NCBI GenBank assembly: GCA_039180865.1
Contig: JBCDCZ010000002.1
Coordinates: forward strand, 2,196 to 66,195
DNA from: Pseudomonadota bacterium
GTDB lineage: Bacteria > Pseudomonadota > Alphaproteobacteria > Rhizobiales > JACESI01
Reading direction: 5' to 3'
DNA: 64,000 nucleotides
Below the pieces are notes generated by a model, which was not told where the DNA came from, did not search any database, and saw only the letters and a list, made by a program, of their open reading frames with translations. The position numbers and the translations under genes are program-made. Positions 47,699-59,855 of this stretch are shown piece by piece. Every line of letters begins with the position of its first letter. Position 1 is the stretch's first letter.

Positions 47699-47798
47699 TA
47701 GCGAGAATACATCATTTCAGCGCACGATCGGGTTAGATATCATTCAATCATACCAATAGTATAGCCCAATCAATCGCAATAAATGCGGGGGCGCTTTG

Positions 47799-49916
47799 AT
47801 GAAAATTCATGCAACTTACAGTCTCTTGATGACGACCGCGCTGGCGGGGCTGGTCACTCCTGTTTTCGCGCAAGAGATCCAAACTTCCAACGGTACGGCG
47901 ATCCTTCTCGATGAGATCGTACTTAGAGGCGACAAGGTCGGACGCACGATACAGTCGGCAACAGCAGGCACTACTGTCATAAACGGTGAGACGGCAAATG
48001 CAGCGGTCAATCAGGACATCGATGACGTTGTTGCCGCTGAAGCCAATGTCCTTGCCAATGAAGGGTTCTCACTGCCGTCGATCAGGGGAATCGATTCCAC
48101 CAGCGGTGGCAGGCCAAGCATAACGGCCGGTTCGCAACCAAGAACTCCCATTCTGGTGGATGGCGTGGCCTTGCCATCGAATGAGTCATCGGCGATTTCA
48201 TCGGTTTCTACTTGGGATATCGATACTGTTGAAGTGGGGCGCGGACCACAACCAACAAACACCGGGCGCAATGCAATCGGTGGCGCTATCCGCGTTTTCA
48301 CAAATGATCCAACCTATGATTTAGAGTTTGCGACCAGGATCGGATATTTCAACCAGAACGGAACGATAAACGGCGCAGCGCTTGTTAACATTCCGATCGT
48401 GGAAGACCAGGCAGCCCTTCGCTTTACGGCGGAGGGAAGCTTTGGAGACAGTTTCGTTGATATTGTTCCATCAGTTCCGGCCGGTTTCGATCCAAACCAG
48501 GAGACATTTGGACGGGTGAAAGGCAAATTGCTGCTGGAGCCCTCGAGCCTGCCAGGTTTGAGTGTTTTGGTAAGTGTCGACCATCTGCGCAACGAAGAAC
48601 CGATTGACGGCTTCGTGGATGATGTCGAGGCTGTCAGTATCAGTGGGGCGAACCCATTCGGGCTTGTATCTTCCTTTGAGGAAGTCGATCAGACAGTCTA
48701 CCAAGCCCGTGCAAGCTATGACTTCGACGAGCGCTTCACGCTGGTGAGCCGTGTTGCCTATCTCGACAATTCGCTCCTCTTTGCTGATACCGGAGACGTC
48801 TTCAACTTTGGCTTTCCGTTCGCTTTGGGCGCGACCGGTTTTGACAAAGACCAAATCGAAGGTGAGGTCTATCTCCAATTCAGGGATTTGGGCGTCATCA
48901 GACGAGGTGTCTTCGGTGTCATACACAACACTGAGAAAGAAGACGGCTTTAACAGCGGCACGCTCGAATTTACAGCGGATGGCGAGATCAACAACACGGG
49001 TGTTTACGGTGAAGTCGAAGTGTCGGCGGATCGCTTCGTTGACGGCTTGACATTCATTGGCGGCGGGCGCCTTGAGATTGATAATCGGTTCCGCGACACC
49101 TTTGCTCCTGCGGGCAATCCGGTTGGCGCTTTCTACGGCAGCGAGACGGAGTTCCTGCCGAAAGCCGGTATTCGATATGAACCGACCGACAACCTTACCT
49201 TCGGCTACACATTCTCCAGAGGGTTTCGGGCCGGTGGCCTCGACGTTGATTTAACGGCGCCCATATTCGGTCTGCCACTCTCGATTTCCGAGTTTGGGTC
49301 GGAATTCATCAATCAGCACGAAGTGTACGCAAGAGGCTCGTTCCTCGATGGTAAGCTCGACCTTTCTGCCACCGGTTTTTACTACAAGTGGGACGATGCA
49401 CAGGTGGAGGGCGCAGCATCTTTCTTCGGCGGCGGTGTTGTGCTGATCGGAAACGTACCCGAAGCCATCGGGTTCGGCGGTGAGTTTAATGCTGCATACA
49501 AAATCAACCAGCAGTTCAGTGTCAAAGCAGCTCTTGGTCTGCTCGAAACGGAAATCACAGATGCGGGAACGGGACTTGCGACTTTTGAAGGTTCGGCCCT
49601 TCCCCGCGCACCCGAATTAACAATATCCGGTGGTCTCACCTGGCAGCCGATGGAGAACTTAAAGGCTGCGGTTGATGTCCGACATATCGGCGAAACATTC
49701 ACCGGTCTCGGCGAAGCCACGCTCGATAACTACACCGTCGTCGATGTCTCCGCCGGGTATACCGTCAGAACCGGAAGTTCCGAGTTTCAACTGGAAGGCT
49801 TCGTCAACAATATCTTCGATGAAAGCTTTATTACCTTTTCCGAGGCTGGCTTCATAACTCTGACGGCGGTTGGACGCCCGCGGACTTTCGGTGCGCTCCT
49901 GACGGCGAAATTCTGA
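47799..49916 (+). CDS. TonB-dependent siderophore receptor (FyuA-like)
   Basis: Signal peptide, LDEIVL TonB box, VEVGRGPQ...GRNAIGGAI plug, NNIFDE, C-terminal Phe. Confidence 0.92.
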   Translation: MKIHATYSLLMTTALAGLVTPVFAQEIQTSNGTAILLDEIVLRGDKVGRTIQSATAGTTVINGETANAAVNQDIDDVVAAEANVLANEGFSLPSIRGIDSTSGGRPSITAGSQPRTPILVDGVALPSNESSAISSVSTWDIDTVEVGRGPQPTNTGRNAIGGAIRVFTNDPTYDLEFATRIGYFNQNGTINGAALVNIPIVEDQAALRFTAEGSFGDSFVDIVPSVPAGFDPNQETFGRVKGKLLLEPSSLPGLSVLVSVDHLRNEEPIDGFVDDVEAVSISGANPFGLVSSFEEVDQTVYQARASYDFDERFTLVSRVAYLDNSLLFADTGDVFNFGFPFALGATGFDKDQIEGEVYLQFRDLGVIRRGVFGVIHNTEKEDGFNSGTLEFTADGEINNTGVYGEVEVSADRFVDGLTFIGGGRLEIDNRFRDTFAPAGNPVGAFYGSETEFLPKAGIRYEPTDNLTFGYTFSRGFRAGGLDVDLTAPIFGLPLSISEFGSEFINQHEVYARGSFLDGKLDLSATGFYYKWDDAQVEGAASFFGGGVVLIGNVPEAIGFGGEFNAAYKINQQFSVKAALGLLETEITDAGTGLATFEGSALPRAPELTISGGLTWQPMENLKAAVDVRHIGETFTGLGEATLDNYTVVDVSAGYTVRTGSSEFQLEGFVNNIFDESFITFSEAGFITLTAVGRPRTFGALLTAKF

Positions 49917-49976
49917 CGAAGACATACCCCTGGAAAGGATTGGTAGTGCTCTCGACAAGTACGAAACAGTAGACCC

Positions 49977-52232
49977 ATGCGCTGGCATGTCTTATCAATT
50001 GTTGGACTGCTTTATGCCGTTCAGTTCATTCCCTTCTTTTTCGCCATTCTTGCGCTTCCGATCGTGATGCGTCAGGAGGGGTATTCGGCAACGACCATCG
50101 GTCTTGTTCAGCTGGCCGCGATCCCTTACGTGTTCAAGTTTCTCTGGGCACCCTTGATCGACCGCTACAAGCTTGGAAAGGACCGATACAAATCCTGGAT
50201 TGTTGTTCTTTCGAGCATTCATGTTGTAAGCATCATTGCACTTGCGATCTTCGATCCCTCCGGCCCGCTCGTTCTTCTATTTATAGCATTGATGGTCGCC
50301 TGTATCGCAGTCAGCACGCAGGATGTTGCGGTTGATGCACTTGTGATCTCTTTGCTGCGGCCATCAGAGCGAACAATGGGCTCGACCTTCCAGAACGCCG
50401 GGGCCTATACCGGAGCGATTATCGGCGGCTTCGGATTTCTTTATATCTACGATAATATAGGTTGGACTATCGCCTTGTTGATTCAGGCGGGATTATTCGC
50501 CCTTCCCCTCATCGTGCTGGTGTTTGTCAAAGAACCGCCGCGGCTGCGCGGCGTACCGCCGGTCAATTTGAAGAACGCATTTCGTTTCTTCACGCAGCCA
50601 AGGATGGGACGGTGGCTTGCGATCCTAGGAACGATGCGCCTACCCCTTATCATGACGATGCTACCCATGCGTCTCATGATGGTCGATCAGGGAATGTCGG
50701 CTGAAGAGATTGCCGTTTGGTTTGGCCTGTTCGCAATGTGCGCAGGCGGTGGCGCAACGATGATGCTTGGTCCTCTCCTGCGCCACCTTCCGAGAGTTCG
50801 GGCGATCTATATTGTGGGCTTCATCAATGTTCCGGTCCTTGTCGGCGTGGCCTTTATCGCCGCCGCATTTCCAGCTGAGATCCGCTACGCGATCATCATA
50901 GCTTGGGCGGCGATCGCCATGACGGATATCGTCATGTTCCGCGGTGCCATGGACAAGGTCCGTCCGGAAATACCGGGCTTTGATTTTTCCGTTCAAATCG
51001 CAATCTATATGATGCTGCCCGCTTTGACGGATCCGATCGTCGGATATGTCATTGACACGCATGGCTATTTACCAACCTTCCTGATTGCAGTCCCCTTGGG
51101 TCTGGTTCCCCTCGCCGTCCTTTATTTTGCAATTGCGCGGTTCAGCAGTTCGGCGCGGGGTCTTGATGGTGAACGGGTGAAGTCAACGGGCGTTATGGCC
51201 TGTAGAGACCCGAATGCCCTTCTTAAGTTTTGTGAGGAAGAATTCACCGAACACGGCATTACCTGCACCTGGCCTGAACTCAATTTGCTGCGTATGGAGG
51301 AGATGGGCTGCCTCGTCGAGATGAGAGGTTTGAAGGATTCCGTCGATATTCTGATCGAGACACCAAGCGACAACTTCCAGGTCTTCATACGCGACGAAAT
51401 CGTTGAGCACCTGGAGGAATTTGATCCCGTGGCGATACACGATCTGCGTTGGACGGGCGGCATCAAAGTCGGCGAAATGCCGTCTAACTTCAGAATCCTG
51501 CGCGCAAAGAAACGAGAACAAGTATTTCCGGGTCTCATGAGAGTAACACTGGAAGGCATCGACGTAGAGGCCCTTACCAGAGACGGTATTCATATCCGCC
51601 TTATGATGCCGGAGGAACGTGGCCGCGCGCCGGTCTGGCCGGTAATCGCTGAAAACGGCAGCACCGCATGGCCAGAGGGTGACGACAAACTGCATTCACG
51701 CTACGTGACAATCCGCGAGATCCGGATGGATGAACGTGAGATCGATGTCGATATCGCGCTTCACAACGGCGGTTTGATTTCTGACTGGGCCTGCCTCGAA
51801 GGCGATGAGCAAGAGGTCGGAGTCATGGGTCCGTTTGGTGACCCTTATCTCGAACATCAGGATAATGTCGTCATGGCGGCCGATTATACCGGTCTACCCG
51901 CGCTCGCCCGCCTCATAGAAAGCGCAGATCCGAAAGCGACCGGACAGGTCTTTGCGACAGCGCCCTCACAGGAAGAGCTGGAAGCCTACCTGCCGAAAAC
52001 CGCCATGAAGATCACCGCTGTGACCCCAGACAGCTTTTCAGAACAAATCGCCGATCTTGTCCGCTCCTGCACCAATGACGTTGTTTCTTATGCTTGGTTT
52101 GCCGGCGAATTCAGCGCAGCACAGAAAGTACGCAAGATTTTCAAACAGGATTTCAGCCTAACCAAGAAAACACAGCTCAGCGTCGCCTACTGGAAGGCCG
52201 GATCCCCGGGACATACGTCCCGAGCAACTTGA
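49977..52232 (+). CDS. Fusion of RhtX/FptX/AmpG-like MFS siderophore permease with DUF2218-like domain and siderophore-interacting (ViuB-like) reductase
   Basis: N-terminal about 390 aa with KFLWAPLID, STQDVAVDA; C-terminal LMRVTL, HIRL, RYVTIR, VGVMGP, D.TGLPA, WFAGE, YWK in one frame. Confidence 0.88.
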   Translation: MRWHVLSIVGLLYAVQFIPFFFAILALPIVMRQEGYSATTIGLVQLAAIPYVFKFLWAPLIDRYKLGKDRYKSWIVVLSSIHVVSIIALAIFDPSGPLVLLFIALMVACIAVSTQDVAVDALVISLLRPSERTMGSTFQNAGAYTGAIIGGFGFLYIYDNIGWTIALLIQAGLFALPLIVLVFVKEPPRLRGVPPVNLKNAFRFFTQPRMGRWLAILGTMRLPLIMTMLPMRLMMVDQGMSAEEIAVWFGLFAMCAGGGATMMLGPLLRHLPRVRAIYIVGFINVPVLVGVAFIAAAFPAEIRYAIIIAWAAIAMTDIVMFRGAMDKVRPEIPGFDFSVQIAIYMMLPALTDPIVGYVIDTHGYLPTFLIAVPLGLVPLAVLYFAIARFSSSARGLDGERVKSTGVMACRDPNALLKFCEEEFTEHGITCTWPELNLLRMEEMGCLVEMRGLKDSVDILIETPSDNFQVFIRDEIVEHLEEFDPVAIHDLRWTGGIKVGEMPSNFRILRAKKREQVFPGLMRVTLEGIDVEALTRDGIHIRLMMPEERGRAPVWPVIAENGSTAWPEGDDKLHSRYVTIREIRMDEREIDVDIALHNGGLISDWACLEGDEQEVGVMGPFGDPYLEHQDNVVMAADYTGLPALARLIESADPKATGQVFATAPSQEELEAYLPKTAMKITAVTPDSFSEQIADLVRSCTNDVVSYAWFAGEFSAAQKVRKIFKQDFSLTKKTQLSVAYWKAGSPGHTSRAT

Positions 52233-53253: not shown

Positions 53254-53365
53254 GGATGCCTCCGTTCCGGCGCGCCTGTTTGAAAGCGCGTCAGGGGTTG
53301 AGATGAGGCATTCTATTGGTCACATATAGTTACTCATGAAAAGTGGGTACCTTCAGGTAACCGGT

Positions 53366-53770
53366 ATGTCAGATGAAAACAGGGATGAAGAAGACCGGCG
53401 ACACGCTGATCATGCGACCGGTTTTGAATGCTGGGGCGTCTATAGCCGTGAATGCGCTACGCGCCGCACGCTCATGCGAATTGCCGACAAATGGACAATT
53501 CTGATCATCGGCCGCCTCACGCAACGGGCTTGCCGCTTTGGCGAACTCCGTCGCTCGATCGAAGGCATTTCATCGAAGGTGTTGACCGAGCACCTGAGGG
53601 AATTGGAAAAAGACGGGCTGCTAACCCGCACCGTCGAGCCGACTTCGCCGCCATCTGTGACCTATGAGCTAACCGATCTTGGCGTAAGCCTCGGGGCTGT
53701 AGCGCTCTCCATCAAAGAATGGGCCGAACACCACGCCGACGAAATCGAAAGGCATTCGCGGAGCATGTGA
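53366..53770 (+). CDS. HxlR-family regulator
   Basis: C, IADKWT.LI, RFGEL...I.GIS.KVLT..LRELE.DGL, P.V.YELT.LG. Confidence 0.92.
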   Translation: MSDENRDEEDRRHADHATGFECWGVYSRECATRRTLMRIADKWTILIIGRLTQRACRFGELRRSIEGISSKVLTEHLRELEKDGLLTRTVEPTSPPSVTYELTDLGVSLGAVALSIKEWAEHHADEIERHSRSM

Positions 53771-53903
53771 GCTTTTAGCAAGCAGCGTAGCATCTACATG
53801 CTGCCAAATCATGATCGGCTCACACAATGTGCACCGAGAGGCGAACCCACTCTTCGCCAGACAAAACGATATCACGACAATCCGGTTCGACGTGTGTCCA
53901 CTC

Positions 53904-55067
53904 CTATTCCGGAACTATTTTTCCAGGCAATGAGTTCACCGTCATCGTTTCCGATGGCTGGAAATGGATGACCGAACGGATCGACTCTCCCGCTTTCAGA
54001 AGATCGAATGCGGTGTTGATCTGATTATGGGTCATGTGGTGCGTGATGTAGGGATCCACGCTGAAATCACCGCGCAACCATTCATCGACCATGCCGGGAA
54101 GCTGGCTGCGACCGAGAACACCGCCGAAGGCCGTTCCGCGCCAGACGCGGCCCGTCACCAATTGGAACGGTCGGGTTGATATTTCCTGCCCGGCACCTGC
54201 AACGCCAATCACCGTGCATTCGCCCCAACCTTTATGGCAGGCTTCAAGGGCAGCGCGCATCAGGTCGACATTGCCGACGGCCTCGAATGTGTAATCGAGC
54301 CCCCCTCCGGTCATCTCAACGAGCACATCCTGGATCGGCGCATCATAGTCTTTCGGATTGATGCACTCAGTTGCCCCAAGCGCCATGGCAAGCGGGAACT
54401 TTGATGTATTGATATCAATACCGATGATCTTGGAGGCGCCATTCATGACGGCACCCTGGATCACGGCCATGCCGACGGCGCCGAGACCGAAGACTGCGAC
54501 GGTTGCACCGGCCTCCACCTTGGCAGTGTTACGCACAGCGCCCATGCCGGTCGGCACGGCGCAGCCCATAACCGATGCTTTGGAAAGGGGCGCTTCCTTT
54601 GAGATCTTTGACACCGCAATCTCGGGTAGCACGGTGTATTCACTGAACGTGCTCGTCCCCATATAGTGCAGGATCTGCTTACCCTTGTAGGAAAAGCGAG
54701 ACGTTCCGTCCGGCATTACCCCGGCACCCTGGGTCTTGCGAATGGTCTGGCAGAGATTAGTCTTGCCGGACTTGATGTAAGGATCGTTCGGATCTTCAGG
54801 AATATAAAGCGGGATAACGTGGTCGCCCGGGACAACCGACGTCACGCCCTTACCAACCTCTTCAACGATGCCGCAGCCTTCATGACCCAGGATGCAAGGA
54901 AACAATCCCTCCGGGTCTTCGCCTGAAAGGGTAAAGACATCGGTGTGGCAAAGGCTCGTCGTCACAATCCGGACCAGAACCTCACCCTCTTTCGGGCCTT
55001 CAAGATCGATTTCCTCGATTTCCAGGGGCCGGTTTGGCTCCCATGCAATCGCCGCACGTGTCTTCAT
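53904..55067 (-). CDS. frmA: S-(hydroxymethyl)glutathione dehydrogenase / class III ADH variant lacking three structural-Zn cysteines
   Basis: [46 protein letters not shown]; structural loop reads [19 protein letters not shown]. Confidence 0.93.
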
Positions 55068-55092
55068 CGTTCTTCTCCCATTCCTCTTCCAA

Positions 55093-55746
55093 TCAGTGAT
55101 AGACCCGTTGCACCGGCCTGTTCTCAAGATCATTCACCGGATCGAGCACAAGAACGAGGCGTGTTTCGCCCGTTCCCTCGATCGGGGGTGAGCGATGCAG
55201 AAGCCCCGATTTCGACCCGTCAGGCCAGAGCGTGCCGCGCAGCACCATGGGCGCGCCGGTCGCGACCGTAAAGACACGGCGCGGCTCTTCTCCATCGGTT
55301 GAGATGCCGTACTGGGTGCCTGTTCCGCGATAGGTGCAGATCATGCGGGCAAGGATCGAATCGATATGAAATTTCCGGCAGGCATTCGTCGTCACCACAT
55401 CAAGGCGCATGCGCATATAGTGAACCGCCATCAGATCCGAAAAGAGACGGGACATATCGGCAATGTCCTCAACGAGCAAATCTCGCTCAGGATCGTCGGG
55501 CGTACCGGCAATCTGGCAAAGCTGATACACAGCCTCCAAGACAGAATCGCCGTGAAGAACCACCCTGCCCTGCGGCAGGTATTTGGGATCGAGCCCAGCC
55601 ACCCAATCCTTGAGGTCCGGCGCCATTTGCCGGTTCCAGATCGCGGCAGCACAGCCTGGGCGATGGATGGCGTTCAGCCCCTCCGGCGTATGGGCCATGC
55701 CGACACCGACCACAGCCTCTTCAACAATGTCGCCAACAAGCATCAT
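55093..55746 (-). CDS. DUF1826 protein
   Basis: AIWNR, RLDVV...CRKFHID, R.ICTYRG.GT, GLLHRSP, RLVLVLD; TAATG-coupled to the GTPase stop. Confidence 0.88.
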
Positions 55747-56960
55747 TATTCTGCCGCCTCCTGTACACGTCTCCAAAGCGGGAACGGATCCGGGTAATCC
55801 GGCAGGTCTTCGACCGATGATGCGGTCTCTGACGGAACCAGACAGCTATCAAGGCGAGCCTTCAATTCCTGCCAATCGATCTCTGCGCCGATGAAAACAA
55901 TCTCCTGGCGGCGGTCGCCCCATGGCTCTTTAAAGTGGGCGTTCATGTAAGCCTTGGCAGCTTCATGGGTCGGGCGGCGTTCTTTCGGGACCGATACCCA
56001 CCAATTCCCCAGGGGAGAGACTGAGGAGAGCGCTCCGGCAAGCGAGAATTCCGCCACCCATTCAGGCCGCGTGGCAATCCAGAAATGACCCTTCGCACGG
56101 ATGACACCCGGAAGCTCATTGTTGAGAACGTCCGCGATCTTTTCGGGCACGAAAGGCTGGCGTGCGCGATAGACAAAGGATGTGACGCCATATTCTTCCG
56201 TCTCCGGCACATGATCGGCGAAACCGTAAAGTTCCTTCGCCCACATCGGGTGCTCGTGGGCTTTTTGGAAATCGAAGAGACCGGTCTCAAGAATGGTATC
56301 AGCCGAAACATTGGAATGATCCGTCTCGATGATCTTCGCGTCACCATTGAGACTGCGAATGATCTTGCGCGCCGCATCCACCCGTTCCGGACCCGCGTCG
56401 CTCACCTTGTTGAGGATCACCACATCAGCGAACTCGATCTGATCTGTCAGAAGATGAACAAGGGTCCGGTTATCCTCTTCGCCGAGGGTCTCGCCCCTGT
56501 CGTGGAGGAAGTCGTGGGAGGCGTAATCTTTCAGAAGGTTTACGGCATCTACGACCGTTACCATCGTATCGAGTCTTGAGACATCGGAGAGGCTCACGCC
56601 CTTTTCATCTACGAACTCAAAGGTCGCGGCAACGGGAAGCGGCTCGGAGATCCCAGTCGATTCAATCAGGAGATAATCAAACCGGTCTTCCTGAGCCAAA
56701 CGGCCGACTTCCGCCAGAAGATCATCGCGGAGTGTGCAGCAAATGCAGCCATTCGACATTTCAACGAGTGTCTCGTCGGTGCGGCTTAACTCGGTATCTG
56801 CGCGCACGAGATCGGCGTCGATGTTGACTTCCGACATGTCATTGACGATCACGGCGACGCGGCGGCCTTCGCGGTTGTTCAAAACGCGATTGAGCAATGT
56901 GGTTTTTCCAGCGCCCAAAAAGCCGGATAGAACGGTGACCGGAAGTCGTGTATCAGCCAT
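55746..56960 (-). CDS. zigA: COG0523 (ZigA/YciC/CobW) metallochaperone GTPase
   Basis: [47 protein letters not shown]. Confidence 0.92.
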
Positions 56961-56993
56961 AGTACGGCACTCCTTCTGAGGGGGAATTTTCAC

Positions 56994-57036
56994 GTAACTT
57001 ACACAGTTACTAGACTTACGCAACTGCCATTGTTAC
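56994..57036. promoter_or_regulatory. Tandem Rrf2-type operators
   Basis: GTAAC-N7-GTTAC (56994-57010) and GCAAC-N7-GTTAC (57020-57036) in the zigA/rrf2 spacer. Confidence 0.65.
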
Positions 57037-57066
57037 GAGACTTGTGAAATCTGAGGATAGCTTTTT

Positions 57067-57477
57067 ATGAAGCGCAATAGCCGCCTTTCCCTGGCGCTCC
57101 ACACACTCGGCCATATGGCGACGGAACCTGACGCACCGCGCACATCTGCCGACATAGCGGCCCATGCGGGGACGAACCCGGTTGTCGTGCGCCGGGTCCT
57201 TGGCACGCTCAGGAAAGCGGGCCTTTTGACATCAGAAAAAGGCCATTCCGGCGGCTGGCAGCTCGCGAAATCCCCGCGCGAAATCACCCTTGCCGATATC
57301 TATCTCGCCTTGGATGAACGCCTGATTACGACCGATGATGACGAGCACAGCCACGATTGTTCGCTCGAGCATGCGCTTCACCATCAGGTCCTGACTGTGA
57401 TGGAAGATATCGAGCGCAGCCTGATCGAGCGTCTTTCAGCGACGACTATTGCCGATATTTGTGAAACGGCGACCTAG
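57067..57477 (+). CDS. Rrf2-family regulator (YwnA/SaiR-like, no 3-Cys Fe-S motif)
   Basis: SRLSLALH, TNPVVVRR, GGWQLA..P.EITLADIY. Confidence 0.92.
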   Translation: MKRNSRLSLALHTLGHMATEPDAPRTSADIAAHAGTNPVVVRRVLGTLRKAGLLTSEKGHSGGWQLAKSPREITLADIYLALDERLITTDDDEHSHDCSLEHALHHQVLTVMEDIERSLIERLSATTIADICETAT

Positions 57478-57569
57478 AGCACCCTTGTAGTCTAACGCCC
57501 TAAGCCGCCGCCACGCCTCACCTCTTATAAGGCCCGTTACCTTGATTGACCTTCATTAGGAGCTGCTGA

Positions 57570-58391
57570 TCAGACCAGAGCGATCAGGCGGCACGGCCCG
57601 CCAGTACCGCCCACATGTTTGGGTGCACCGACCACAAGGGTCGCACCAGTTGCGGGCAACTCATCAAGATTTGCGATGTTCTCAACGGCCCACCGGTTCG
57701 CGGGAAGCCATGTGTAATGGGTGATGAAATCAGCCGAGATGCCGTAGTCGATCGAAAGCGTATCGACGGCAATGCCAACGACTTCCGCTTCTTCGAGAAG
57801 CATTTTGACGGCCTCCACGTGAAAGCCCGGAAAGTGCATCTTTCCGGCATCGTCGGCATTGCGGAATTTCGGTGTACCGAGGCGCTTCTGCCAACCTGCA
57901 TTTTGCGCGACACAGGCACCCTGTGGAATAGGTCCGTGCTTGCCGATCCAGGCTTTCAGGTCATCCGGAGTGATTTGCGCATCCGGATCAACATCCGCCT
58001 TTTCCTTGATATCAACGATTGCCAGCGGAGCAACGAGGGATTCGACCGGAACTTCATCAATGGACGCGCCGCCATCGGTAAAGTGCAAAGGCGCATCGAT
58101 ATGGGTTCCCGTATGCTCGTTTACGCGCAACGACTTCAGATTGAATTTGTGGGTGGCGTAAGTGAAGACATCCTCATCGAAAAATTGCTGCTCACCGAAA
58201 TAGGTCGGGAAATCGTGGGTAAGCGTGTGAGTGAGATCGACCGCCTTTGTTGCCACTTGCGCCAGAACCGGGCGCGGCGAAAGCGTGGATGCGGCGACCA
58301 AAGCTGCCCCTGTAGCGGCAGATCCACGAAAGAAGTCGCGCCTGCTCAACGCTTTTCCTTTGACATATTCCATGATGACTGGATGGCACAT
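57570..58391 (-). CDS. Tat-exported cyclase family (kynurenine formamidase-like) metallohydrolase
   Basis: SRRDFF twin-arginine signal; EHTGTHIDAPLHF, VDTLSID, VENIANL. Confidence 0.9.
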   Translation of the reverse strand: MCHPVIMEYVKGKALSRRDFFRGSAATGAALVAASTLSPRPVLAQVATKAVDLTHTLTHDFPTYFGEQQFFDEDVFTYATHKFNLKSLRVNEHTGTHIDAPLHFTDGGASIDEVPVESLVAPLAIVDIKEKADVDPDAQITPDDLKAWIGKHGPIPQGACVAQNAGWQKRLGTPKFRNADDAGKMHFPGFHVEAVKMLLEEAEVVGIAVDTLSIDYGISADFITHYTWLPANRWAVENIANLDELPATGATLVVGAPKHVGGTGGPCRLIALV

Positions 58392-58455
58392 GACACCTCT
58401 CCCCTGTGCGTGCGTGACCGGATATCCGCTTTATCAAGCGGGTCGCGCAAACGAG

Positions 58456-58473
58456 GTTATGTTATACAATACC
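58456..58473. promoter_or_regulatory. Zur-box-like element upstream of the cyclase
   Basis: GTTATGTTATACAATACC; 15/18 match to the palindrome GTTATGTTATAACATAAC. Confidence 0.5.
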
Positions 58474-58540
58474 AACGAGCAATTCACATTCTTCCAGATG
58501 GATCGGGAGTTCGTGGGACGGCGCCTGGTTTCGTGACCCA

Positions 58541-59776
58541 TCATTTTTTGTTTAAGATAGATCTCGCGCAATCATCAACGGGCCTTCGTGACTCGTTTTC
58601 AAAAAGCTGCACATACTGAAGCCCCAAGAACAAACCCGCCGACGAAATCAGGCCCGCAAAACAAAGAATGATTGAAAGGCCGAGACTATCGAGAAGGCTG
58701 GTGCTCACTCCTGCAATCACCAGAAAAACAAGTGCTTCGAGGCTCGTAAAGCTCGCTAGATCCGTTGCTTGCCGTCCGGGGCGGCACAATCCGAGAAGAA
58801 TAGTGCGGTTGGCGGTAAAGGTCGCATAGACGACAAGGTTTGCCCACAAAATGGAGGCCACGATTAAGATCGGGCCAATCTCGTTCAGAGCGAGAAATGC
58901 AAACGCCAAAGCGGCGATGACATTGAGGCTTCCAATACCGATCAGAACACGGAACCCGCCAAACAGATCGATCAGCGGCTTTGCGAGCAACGCGCCTGTA
59001 AAGCCGAGCAAATTGCCGAAGACCAGACTTATGAGACCGCTTTCAGAAACACTGAAACCGGCATCAATCAGCAGAACGGATTTCGCTCCGAACGGCACCA
59101 CAATAGACGCGCTCACCAAGCTCGAAACAATGAAAAGGCGCGAGACTTCTTTTTGCCTTAGGATCGAAAACTGCGAAAGTAAGCTCGGTTTCGTCTCAGG
59201 ATCCAAGGCTGGTCCGAATGACAAGAAACTGTAAGCGATGACCAAAAGCACAACGGAACAGATCAGAAGAGTTGCGACAACACTTTGCCAGCCAAGCGAG
59301 CCAAGAAGGTAAAGCACGCCAGCGCCAAGACTGAAACCAGCGAGCGCAGAAGCCGCAGCCTGCACAGACGCACCCTTTGAGTGATCGCGCTTATCGAGCC
59401 CTTCTGCAATCATCCCGCCAAGCGATGTCAGCGCCGTTCCAAGGGCAATGAAAAGCAAAACAGCAATAACAATAATCTGTATGGCGTCGGTTTCAGGATT
59501 CGTCGTCAACAAAGCTGCCAAAAGTAATGAGACCGCAAGCTGACTGCCGAGTATCCATATGCGGAAGCGTGGTTGGCCCCTCACCCGGAAACGATCGATC
59601 AGCGGTGCCCATATAAATCGCAGTGTAAACGGTATACCGGCGATAAAAATCAATGCGATTAGCGAGGATGAGGCTCCTGCCTCGCGCAGGAATAGAGCAA
59701 TACCCTGGGACGCGAACTGAGCGATCAAAGCACAGGCAAACGATATTGTGCCCAACGTGACTAAGAGTGGCTTCAC
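58541..59776 (-). CDS. RhtX/FptX/AmpG-like MFS siderophore permease
   Basis: RFIWAPLIDR motif, about 12 TM, LLIDAGFS. Confidence 0.85.
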   Translation of the reverse strand: MKPLLVTLGTISFACALIAQFASQGIALFLREAGASSSLIALIFIAGIPFTLRFIWAPLIDRFRVRGQPRFRIWILGSQLAVSLLLAALLTTNPETDAIQIIVIAVLLFIALGTALTSLGGMIAEGLDKRDHSKGASVQAAASALAGFSLGAGVLYLLGSLGWQSVVATLLICSVVLLVIAYSFLSFGPALDPETKPSLLSQFSILRQKEVSRLFIVSSLVSASIVVPFGAKSVLLIDAGFSVSESGLISLVFGNLLGFTGALLAKPLIDLFGGFRVLIGIGSLNVIAALAFAFLALNEIGPILIVASILWANLVVYATFTANRTILLGLCRPGRQATDLASFTSLEALVFLVIAGVSTSLLDSLGLSIILCFAGLISSAGLFLGLQYVQLFENESRRPVDDCARSILNKK

Positions 59777-59855
59777 TTATGACATTCCTAAGAGGTGTAA
59801 GGTGAGCTAAGCGCTACAACCTGCAGGCAGAGACCATTGACGCCGTAAGCGCCAA

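Follow-up and report, generated by a model that had tools for sequence, protein, structure and literature searches.

Can an enzyme that normally holds two zinc ions per subunit give up the structural one, and would it do so as part of the response to zinc starvation? The question is raised by a class III alcohol dehydrogenase (ADH) gene in a 64,000-nt stretch of contig JBCDCZ010000002.1 (hereafter the window, to which all positions refer), where it ends an operon on the minus strand behind genes for a ZigA-like COG0523 GTPase and a DUF1826 protein. Features are listed in Table 1; related genome loci are labelled L, genomes of the order sample G and contigs of the window's own genome C, each with a number. 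Our answer is that the product is probably a zinc-sparing isozyme, that is, a working glutathione-dependent formaldehyde/S-nitrosoglutathione (GSNO) dehydrogenase that belongs to a distinct, horizontally spread clade and is encoded by the last gene of zinc-starvation operons.

The open reading frame begins with an ATG at 55067, preceded by a GGGAG Shine-Dalgarno sequence. Its product matches the equivalog hidden Markov model (HMM) TIGR02818 over positions 1–368 of 368 with 623.9 bits (cut-off 543.95), compared with 615.4 bits for the canonical class III copy of the same genome. As in canonical class III enzymes (FrmA/AdhC/GSNO reductase, GSNOR; TIGR02818; PDB 4dl9, 1m6h and 3uko), to which it aligns over the full length, the catalytic Cys-His-Glu-Cys set is complete (C40, H62, E63 and C169, all invariant in the ADH alignment) and the NAD-binding GxGxxG motif reads GLGAVG (residues 194–199). 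The window ADH also has D-P-E and Arg positions that we take to be contacts of S-hydroxymethylglutathione. The structural-zinc positions 92, 95, 98 and 106 differ from those of the canonical enzymes in reading D, D, I and C. Alignment of the loop that holds them, which follows the conserved HVIPLY, with the structural-zinc loop of tomato GSNOR (PDB 4dl9, matched at 5.8e-150) required no gaps; the loop departs from the class III pattern C-x2-C-x2-C-x7-C. This pattern is present in all 21 canonical class III sequences taken from the same order. Among distant ADH representatives, 43 were full-length (the 50%-identity library being otherwise mostly fragments and fusions), and four Cys stand at these positions in 42 of them, the remaining one reading DCCC. 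Given these counts, the replacement of structural-site Cys in the window ADH is beyond chance variation. The initial annotation, which had described canonical catalytic motifs next to a degenerate structural-zinc loop, was correct in this respect.

The codon of D95 (54783–54785) shows 0 differences in a 152-base Logan contig of depth 33 from sequencing run X1. Since this run is probably the source sample, the contig amounts to a reassembly of those data, with no independent sample behind it. A loose end in run X1 leads to a further clade member with Cys at position 95, and run X2 yielded related contigs only, none identical to the window gene; no RNA run turned up among the holders of the stretch. 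AlphaFold2 models the ADH with a mean predicted local distance difference test score (pLDDT) of 96.4 (96–97 in the loop, 81–89 in the tail); the program ignores metals, so the model is silent on zinc.

To place the gene we used three sets of sequences: the best 120 database clusters (83–94% identical to the query), which together with the query make 121 proteins; 80 related genome loci from many families, with 90–94% identity to the query; and an order sample of 151 genomes, a number that includes the window's own genome and in which kin are not independent. Residues were compared across 198 distinct sequences (the 201 from the 121 proteins and 80 loci, less two of odd length and one duplicate). 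Position 92 is D in 198 of 198, position 95 is C in 197, position 98 is I in 198 and position 106 is C in 197; E91 is conserved alongside D92, C95 and C106, each of them in 197–198 of the sequences. The loop has gained two prolines, P93 (197/198) and P96 (190/198), and within the C-terminal tail P371, T374 and G382 are invariant; a comparable tail occurs in none of the 21 canonical sequences. Length is just as uniform, with 107 of the 121 proteins having exactly 387 aa and nearly all 386–387 aa. The state of the clade, which we call C-minus, is on these alignments D-C-I-C, with two of the four Cys lost. Asp at position 95 belongs to the window copy alone, which is 94% identical to its nearest relative, and since C95 is kept in 197 of 198 clade sequences the third loss is limited to that copy. 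The replacement of three of four Cys, as originally described, therefore holds for the window copy (D/D/I/C) and not for the clade.

C-minus proteins are found in Roseibium, Tritonibacter, Leisingera, Paracoccus, Rhodovulum, Sinorhizobium/Ensifer, Agrobacterium, Rhizobium, Cohaesibacter and Halomonas. In the order sample nine of 151 genomes, the own genome included, have a C-minus copy at 91–100% identity, and every other hit is at or below 66%; in the window's own family, represented by three genomes of the sample, the copies are all canonical. A quick maximum-likelihood tree search with 29 hand-picked C-minus rows and the 21 canonical rows separated the two groups by one branch (SH-aLRT 99), with a long stem of 1.07 changes per site, short tips and scrambled taxa. 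This pattern fits a single origin, strong constraint and horizontal spread.

The gene order of the window operon is zigA, DUF1826, adh. The ATG of DUF1826 overlaps the TAA stop of zigA as TAATG and the ADH gene begins 25 bases past DUF1826, so that the position directly downstream of a COG0523 metallochaperone and DUF1826, remarked on from the start, is real. The ZigA-like gene scores 582.9 bits with NF038288, slightly below the cut-off of 600. A DUF1826 gene, whole or remnant, lies directly upstream of the ADH gene with a gap of ∼30 nt in 60 of 80 loci (as detected by an HMM built from the loci themselves). Operon linkage to a ZigA-type GTPase is conserved as well, a same-strand ZigA-like gene being found upstream in 36 of 81 loci and a same-strand znuA in 12 of 81; in L021 and L012 znuC-znuB-znuA-zigA-DUF1826-adh run contiguously on one strand. 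In the order sample DUF1826 is present in 22 of 151 genomes, comprising all nine C-minus carriers and 13 of the 142 non-carriers.

Zur-like boxes point in the same direction. A position weight matrix (PWM) was made from 24 core sites in the related loci; boxes of at least 15 bits within 3.5 kb of the ADH gene occur upstream in 43 of 81 loci and on the downstream side, our control, in 13 of 81, counts that are partly circular given the origin of the matrix. With up to two mismatches allowed, 35 of 81 loci have the 12-base core ATGTTATAACAT upstream (230 kb of upstream sequence gave 39 matches, 243 kb of downstream sequence 15), and the motif of the loci agrees with the Zur motif of Paracoccus denitrificans verified by electrophoretic mobility shift assay, as given in the available text of PMC5387054. 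Taken together, a Zur-like box or znuA is located upstream in 52 of 81 loci. In 17 of the 23 loci that have neither of these nor an Rrf2 gene on the upstream side, the sequence available on that side is <2.3 kb long. It is because of the 52 of 81 loci with a Zur-like box or znuA, and of the 60 of 80 with DUF1826 directly upstream, that a zinc-sparing isozyme is our best reading. The suspected co-occurrence of the loop variant with COG0523 and DUF1826 was thus found: the variants form a discrete clade with strong linkage to DUF1826, to ZigA-like GTPases and to both znuCBA and Zur-like boxes, as would be expected of a zinc-sparing paralogue.

The window's own genome contains a Zur system. Contig C317 has a zur-znuCB/znuA cluster with two Zur-like boxes (a Pfam FUR search of the genome overlooked this zur gene), contig C100 a second, divergent COG0523/DUF1826 pair with a Zur-like box, and contig C84 another COG0523 gene preceded by such a box. 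A PF01297 hit on contig C95, considered as a zinc marker, was set aside; it is preceded by a TTGCAA-rich repeat unlike Zur boxes.

The same genome has a canonical counterpart. Contig C32 carries a 369-aa class III gene, 57% identical to the window ADH, whose loop PECRECDYCTSGKTNLC has all four Cys; the second, canonical frmA that the initial annotation proposed to look for is therefore present. It lies directly upstream of the gene for S-formylglutathione hydrolase FghA (TIGR02821, 430.6 bits), and FghA adjoins this copy and not the C-minus gene. Relative to this housekeeping paralogue the window ADH has lost zinc-ligand residues at the structural site only. Among the larger carrier genomes 17 of 19 have at least two TIGR02818-level genes, and FghA was detected in 16 of 19.

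We propose the following scheme. The Cys4 structural-zinc knuckle would have been rebuilt as a zinc-independent loop, with Asp and Ile in place of two ligands and two prolines added, and an 18-residue C-terminal tail would have been gained while the catalytic zinc site was kept. The former structural site would no longer bind metal, the protein would fold without it, and because the knuckle is rebuilt and the catalytic site retained the zinc requirement of each subunit would drop from two ions to one. It would be expressed as the product of the last gene of (znuCBA)-zigA-DUF1826-adh operons under zinc starvation, and the zinc still required at the catalytic site may be delivered by the ZigA-like GTPase, although some relatives that have lost zigA keep DUF1826-adh.

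Such a scheme has precedents. Zinc-free paralogues of zinc enzymes located beside COG0523 genes in Zur regulons are an established pattern, according to the available text of PMC2770081, and the C-minus L31/L36, DksA2, PyrC2, HemB2 and FolE2 of that paper resemble the window gene in lost zinc-ligand Cys, a COG0523 neighbour, a canonical copy elsewhere and Zur boxes, the boxes being found here in relatives of the window operon. The differences are that here only the structural site is lost, the catalytic ligands stay and the local switch is of the Rrf2 family. The nine Zur-linked paralogue families in the text of Haas et al. 2009 available to us (PMC2770081) have no ADH or formaldehyde entry. 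A review of Zur speaks of zinc-free ADH paralogues, in its accessible part in general terms (PMC6103462), and a swap from a Zn-type to an Fe-type ADH is described for Acinetobacter in the accessible part of PMC12458113; these cases share with ours a change of alcohol dehydrogenase isozyme when zinc is limiting (in ours, a proposed one), but as far as these texts go they lead to a different family or are not class III, whereas here the family is the same and one of two zinc sites is dropped. The ZigA-DUF1826 pairs of Zur regulons have the same order of COG0523 GTPase and DUF1826 (translationally coupled in the window), and the accessible text of PMC5387054 places the P. denitrificans COG0523 gene pden1338 with two hypothetical genes in the Zur regulon; the difference is a third gene, the C-minus ADH, present in nine of the 22 DUF1826-carrying genomes of the order sample. 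Likewise, the C-minus gene differs from canonical class III genes in standing in zigA/DUF1826 operons and not beside fghA. Full-text searches brought up no description of a class III ADH that lacks the structural zinc site, nor of a gene of this kind under Zur, but it might be listed among the alphaproteobacterial Zur sites in the supplement of PMC2770081 or among the regulated genes in that of PMC5387054.

Several observations weigh against a zinc-sparing role. First, the Zur linkage is one of relatives. No Zur-like box was found in the 106-base gap between zigA and the divergent Rrf2 gene, which holds both palindromes of Table 1, and the window's sole Zur-like box (16.0 bits) lies upstream of the neighbouring cyclase gene, not of zigA. 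With an Rrf2 regulator and palindromes at this promoter and no Zur box, zinc-responsive expression of the window copy is conjectural, and since the pair on contig C100 has a Zur-like box of its own, the window copy may answer another signal. The idea of a zinc-sparing paralogue, as first put forward, is in this sense borne out by the linkage across the clade and not by the promoter of the window operon. Moreover, the PWM was built from the same loci, so the box counts are not independent evidence. Second, the enzyme is not always a back-up, because the C-minus gene is the only one to pass the TIGR02818 cut-off in four of the eight other carriers of the order sample (G105, G025, G068 and G009); its status as a paralogue, though true of the window's own genome, does not extend to these four. 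FghA was not found in three of the 19 larger carrier genomes, nor in any of the four exceptions (93–100% complete), where the usual two-step formaldehyde pathway seems incomplete. Since FghA was not found in some carriers, oxidation of formaldehyde to formate may not be the role of the enzyme everywhere. Third, the saving could amount to half at most, as catalysis continues to require its zinc. Finally, clade members nearly all share D92, C95 and C106, and therefore a three-ligand or otherwise altered metal site fits the residues as well as a metal-free loop.

This last point opens an alternative in which the site is altered and not lost, with E91/D92, C95 (D95 in the window) and C106 binding either zinc at a lowered coordination number or one of the harder metals (e.g. 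Mn, Fe, Mg, Ca). Conservation of the four residues in the clade is what one would expect of such a site, Glu or Asp serves as a ligand of the structural zinc in known archaeal ADHs, and the DCCC representative puts a carboxylate in place of one structural Cys. Still, I98 is incapable of metal binding, the two prolines reshape the loop, and the window copy does without C95 even though it is 94% identical to its nearest relative; we regard an altered metal site as unlikely.

A second alternative starts from the regulator. The Rrf2 protein matches YwnA (PDB 1xd7) at 1.1e-13 and, like other YwnA-type members (PDB 1xd7, 1ylf), is a 136-aa winged-helix protein of the cluster-less type, in which the three-Cys cluster motif is absent and a single Cys is conserved (eight orthologues aligned); its match to the redox sensor HypR is weak (46.4 bits, cut-off 180). 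A His-rich patch considered as a zinc site was dropped, as it is not conserved in seven orthologues. The GTAAC-N7-GTTRC palindrome has 14 strand hits in the 4.7 Mb genome, three of which (two sites) are in the zigA-Rrf2 gap, and the same pair of palindromes with the same regulator is present in L004, L026, L032 and L073. A divergent Rrf2 gene is found upstream in seven of 81 loci, where this arrangement occupies the place held by the Zur box in other relatives. Rrf2 homologues of at least 60% identity occur in three genomes of the order sample, the copy in G033 adjoining DUF1826 remnants. We know of no role of YwnA-type Rrf2 proteins in the control of zinc or formaldehyde; recurrence beside zigA/DUF1826 operons (the seven loci plus G033) sets this group apart from the known members. 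A consensus scan of 53300–58600 gave one promoter-like match (2.6 expected) and eight terminator-like matches (5.1 expected), numbers at the level of chance and all intragenic. Judged from its promoter, the window operon would be either an extra copy under a different signal or one whose zinc signal is read by a different protein.

If the signal is a thiol stress sensed by a YwnA/HypR-like Rrf2 protein, and not zinc, the C-minus ADH would be a stress-proof isozyme, made resistant to oxidants, NO and electrophiles by the loss of a zinc-thiolate cluster. The single conserved Cys of the divergent regulator, the two conserved palindromes at a promoter with no Zur-like box, and the Zur-boxed COG0523/DUF1826 pair that the genome already has elsewhere are all compatible with such an isozyme. 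So are the carriers in which FghA was not found, which fit a role as GSNO reductase; that role requires no FghA. Against these stand the 52 of 81 loci with a Zur-like box or znuA upstream, partner genes for a zinc-chaperone-type GTPase and DUF1826, and the retention of C95 and C106 in 197 of 198 sequences. C-minus proteins have a mean of 9.1 Cys compared with 11.0 in canonical ones, and a saving of about two Cys makes a weak case for the general thiol-stress resistance that had been suggested alongside zinc sparing. We consider a stress-proof isozyme improbable.

The DUF1826 protein suggests a third alternative. In 50 sequences H127-x-D129, H184, R196 and a C-terminal His are conserved. Its AlphaFold2 model (pLDDT 84.9) gave 315 Foldseek matches in PDB at E ≤0.001, the top ones all being Fe(II)/2-oxoglutarate dioxygenases with template modelling (TM) scores of 0.4–0.5, while by sequence no relative was found in PDB (best E 0.88). 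On the model, DUF1826 may be an oxygenase, and from this likeness comes the possibility that the ADH clears an aldehyde made by it. In L026, L078 and L079 zigA is deleted, with short in-frame N- and C-terminal remnants left, and DUF1826-adh is retained; in L011, L027, L049 and L059 DUF1826 itself is a remnant and the ADH is retained. Complex prediction of ADH with DUF1826 gave no answer (score 0.00, mark 0.32). An ADH that is simply the dedicated sink for formaldehyde or another aldehyde released by this oxygenase (e.g. in oxidative demethylation), and no client of a chaperone, would account for the dioxygenase-like residues and fold, for the close adjacency of the two genes, for its survival where zigA is reduced to remnants and for carriers in which the C-minus enzyme is the sole class III gene, but is the least probable of the three, given TM-scores that low, DUF1826 in 13 order-sample genomes without a C-minus ADH, DUF1826 beside COG0523 in other Zur regulons (according to the available text of PMC2770081), the four loci that keep the ADH next to a DUF1826 remnant and the carriers in which FghA was not found. 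The three alternatives are not mutually exclusive with zinc sparing.

Table 1. Coordinates of the ADH operon and of adjacent features in the window
Feature	Position	Strand	Basis or remark
Class III ADH / S-(hydroxymethyl)glutathione dehydrogenase, C-minus clade, 387 aa	53904..55067	-	TIGR02818, PDB 4dl9
C-terminal tail, residues 370-387, clade-specific	53907..53960	-	conserved P371, T374, L380-P381-G382
Degenerate structural-zinc loop, residues 92-106: D92, P93, D95, P96, I98, C106	54750..54794	-	alignments
DUF1826 protein, 217 aa, H127-x-D129...H184...R196	55093..55746	-	PF08856, 179.9 bits
ZigA-like COG0523 GTPase, 404 aa, CxCC motif (GCICC)	55746..56960	-	NF038288, PF02492, PF07683
Two 17-bp palindromes, GTAAC-N7-GTTRC, inferred operator	57020-57036 and 56994-57010	.	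between zigA and Rrf2 gene
YwnA-type Rrf2-family regulator, 136 aa, divergent from zigA	57067..57477	+	TIGR00738, 81.3 bits; PDB 1xd7
Tat-signal cyclase-family (PF04199) protein	57570..58391	-	recurrent neighbour of these operons
Zur-like box, ∼70 nt upstream of cyclase-family gene	58455..58474	.	PWM 16.0 bits

Among the neighbours of the operon, the cyclase-family protein may act in the periplasm as part of the response to zinc starvation. Homologues follow the ADH gene in L003, L014, L042 and L012, and a second cyclase-family gene of the own genome, on contig C283, has a stronger Zur-like box (27.7 bits). Genes of iron-uptake type flank the operon at 47796–52232 and 58541–60920; they include a TonB-dependent receptor, a 751-aa fusion of a major facilitator superfamily (MFS) transporter with a siderophore-interacting FAD-binding reductase, a second MFS gene and a DUF2218-SIP fusion. 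Between 52357 and 53770 an HxlR/DUF24-type regulator gene is divergent from a quinone-oxidoreductase-like gene and convergent with the ADH gene. These two genes lie beside the ADH gene in none of 80 loci and are treated as an unrelated unit.

A bolder extension of the zinc-sparing reading, which we offer as speculation with a small chance of being right, is that in some marine alphaproteobacteria the zigA-DUF1826-adh module was rewired from Zur to a YwnA-type Rrf2 protein, which would be a new zinc sensor or a sensor of thiols or aldehydes; that the one-zinc formaldehyde dehydrogenase would be purpose-built to remove an aldehyde produced by DUF1826 acting as a 2-oxoglutarate oxygenase; and that with this dehydrogenase a bacterial ZigA-type chaperone would, for the first time, have a defined client enzyme that belongs to neither folate nor histidine metabolism.

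That cells spare zinc by exchanging zinc proteins is well established for those of the ribosome and for a few enzymes. A two-zinc enzyme that sheds its structural zinc alone would, if our reading is true, be a new and graded form of it, and one that touches an enzyme which is among the most conserved in the detoxification of formaldehyde and nitrosothiols. In the D-C-I-C and D-D-I-C loops, the prolines and the tail, nature also shows how the zinc knuckle of a medium-chain dehydrogenase/reductase (MDR) enzyme is replaceable. This compact clade is common in alphaproteobacteria of sea and soil, cultured carriers such as Roseibium algae, Amaricoccus macauensis and Roseovarius albus included. Accompanied by DUF1826 and often by a ZigA-like GTPase, it would thus be a practical system for two questions, the zinc targets of COG0523 proteins and the function of DUF1826.

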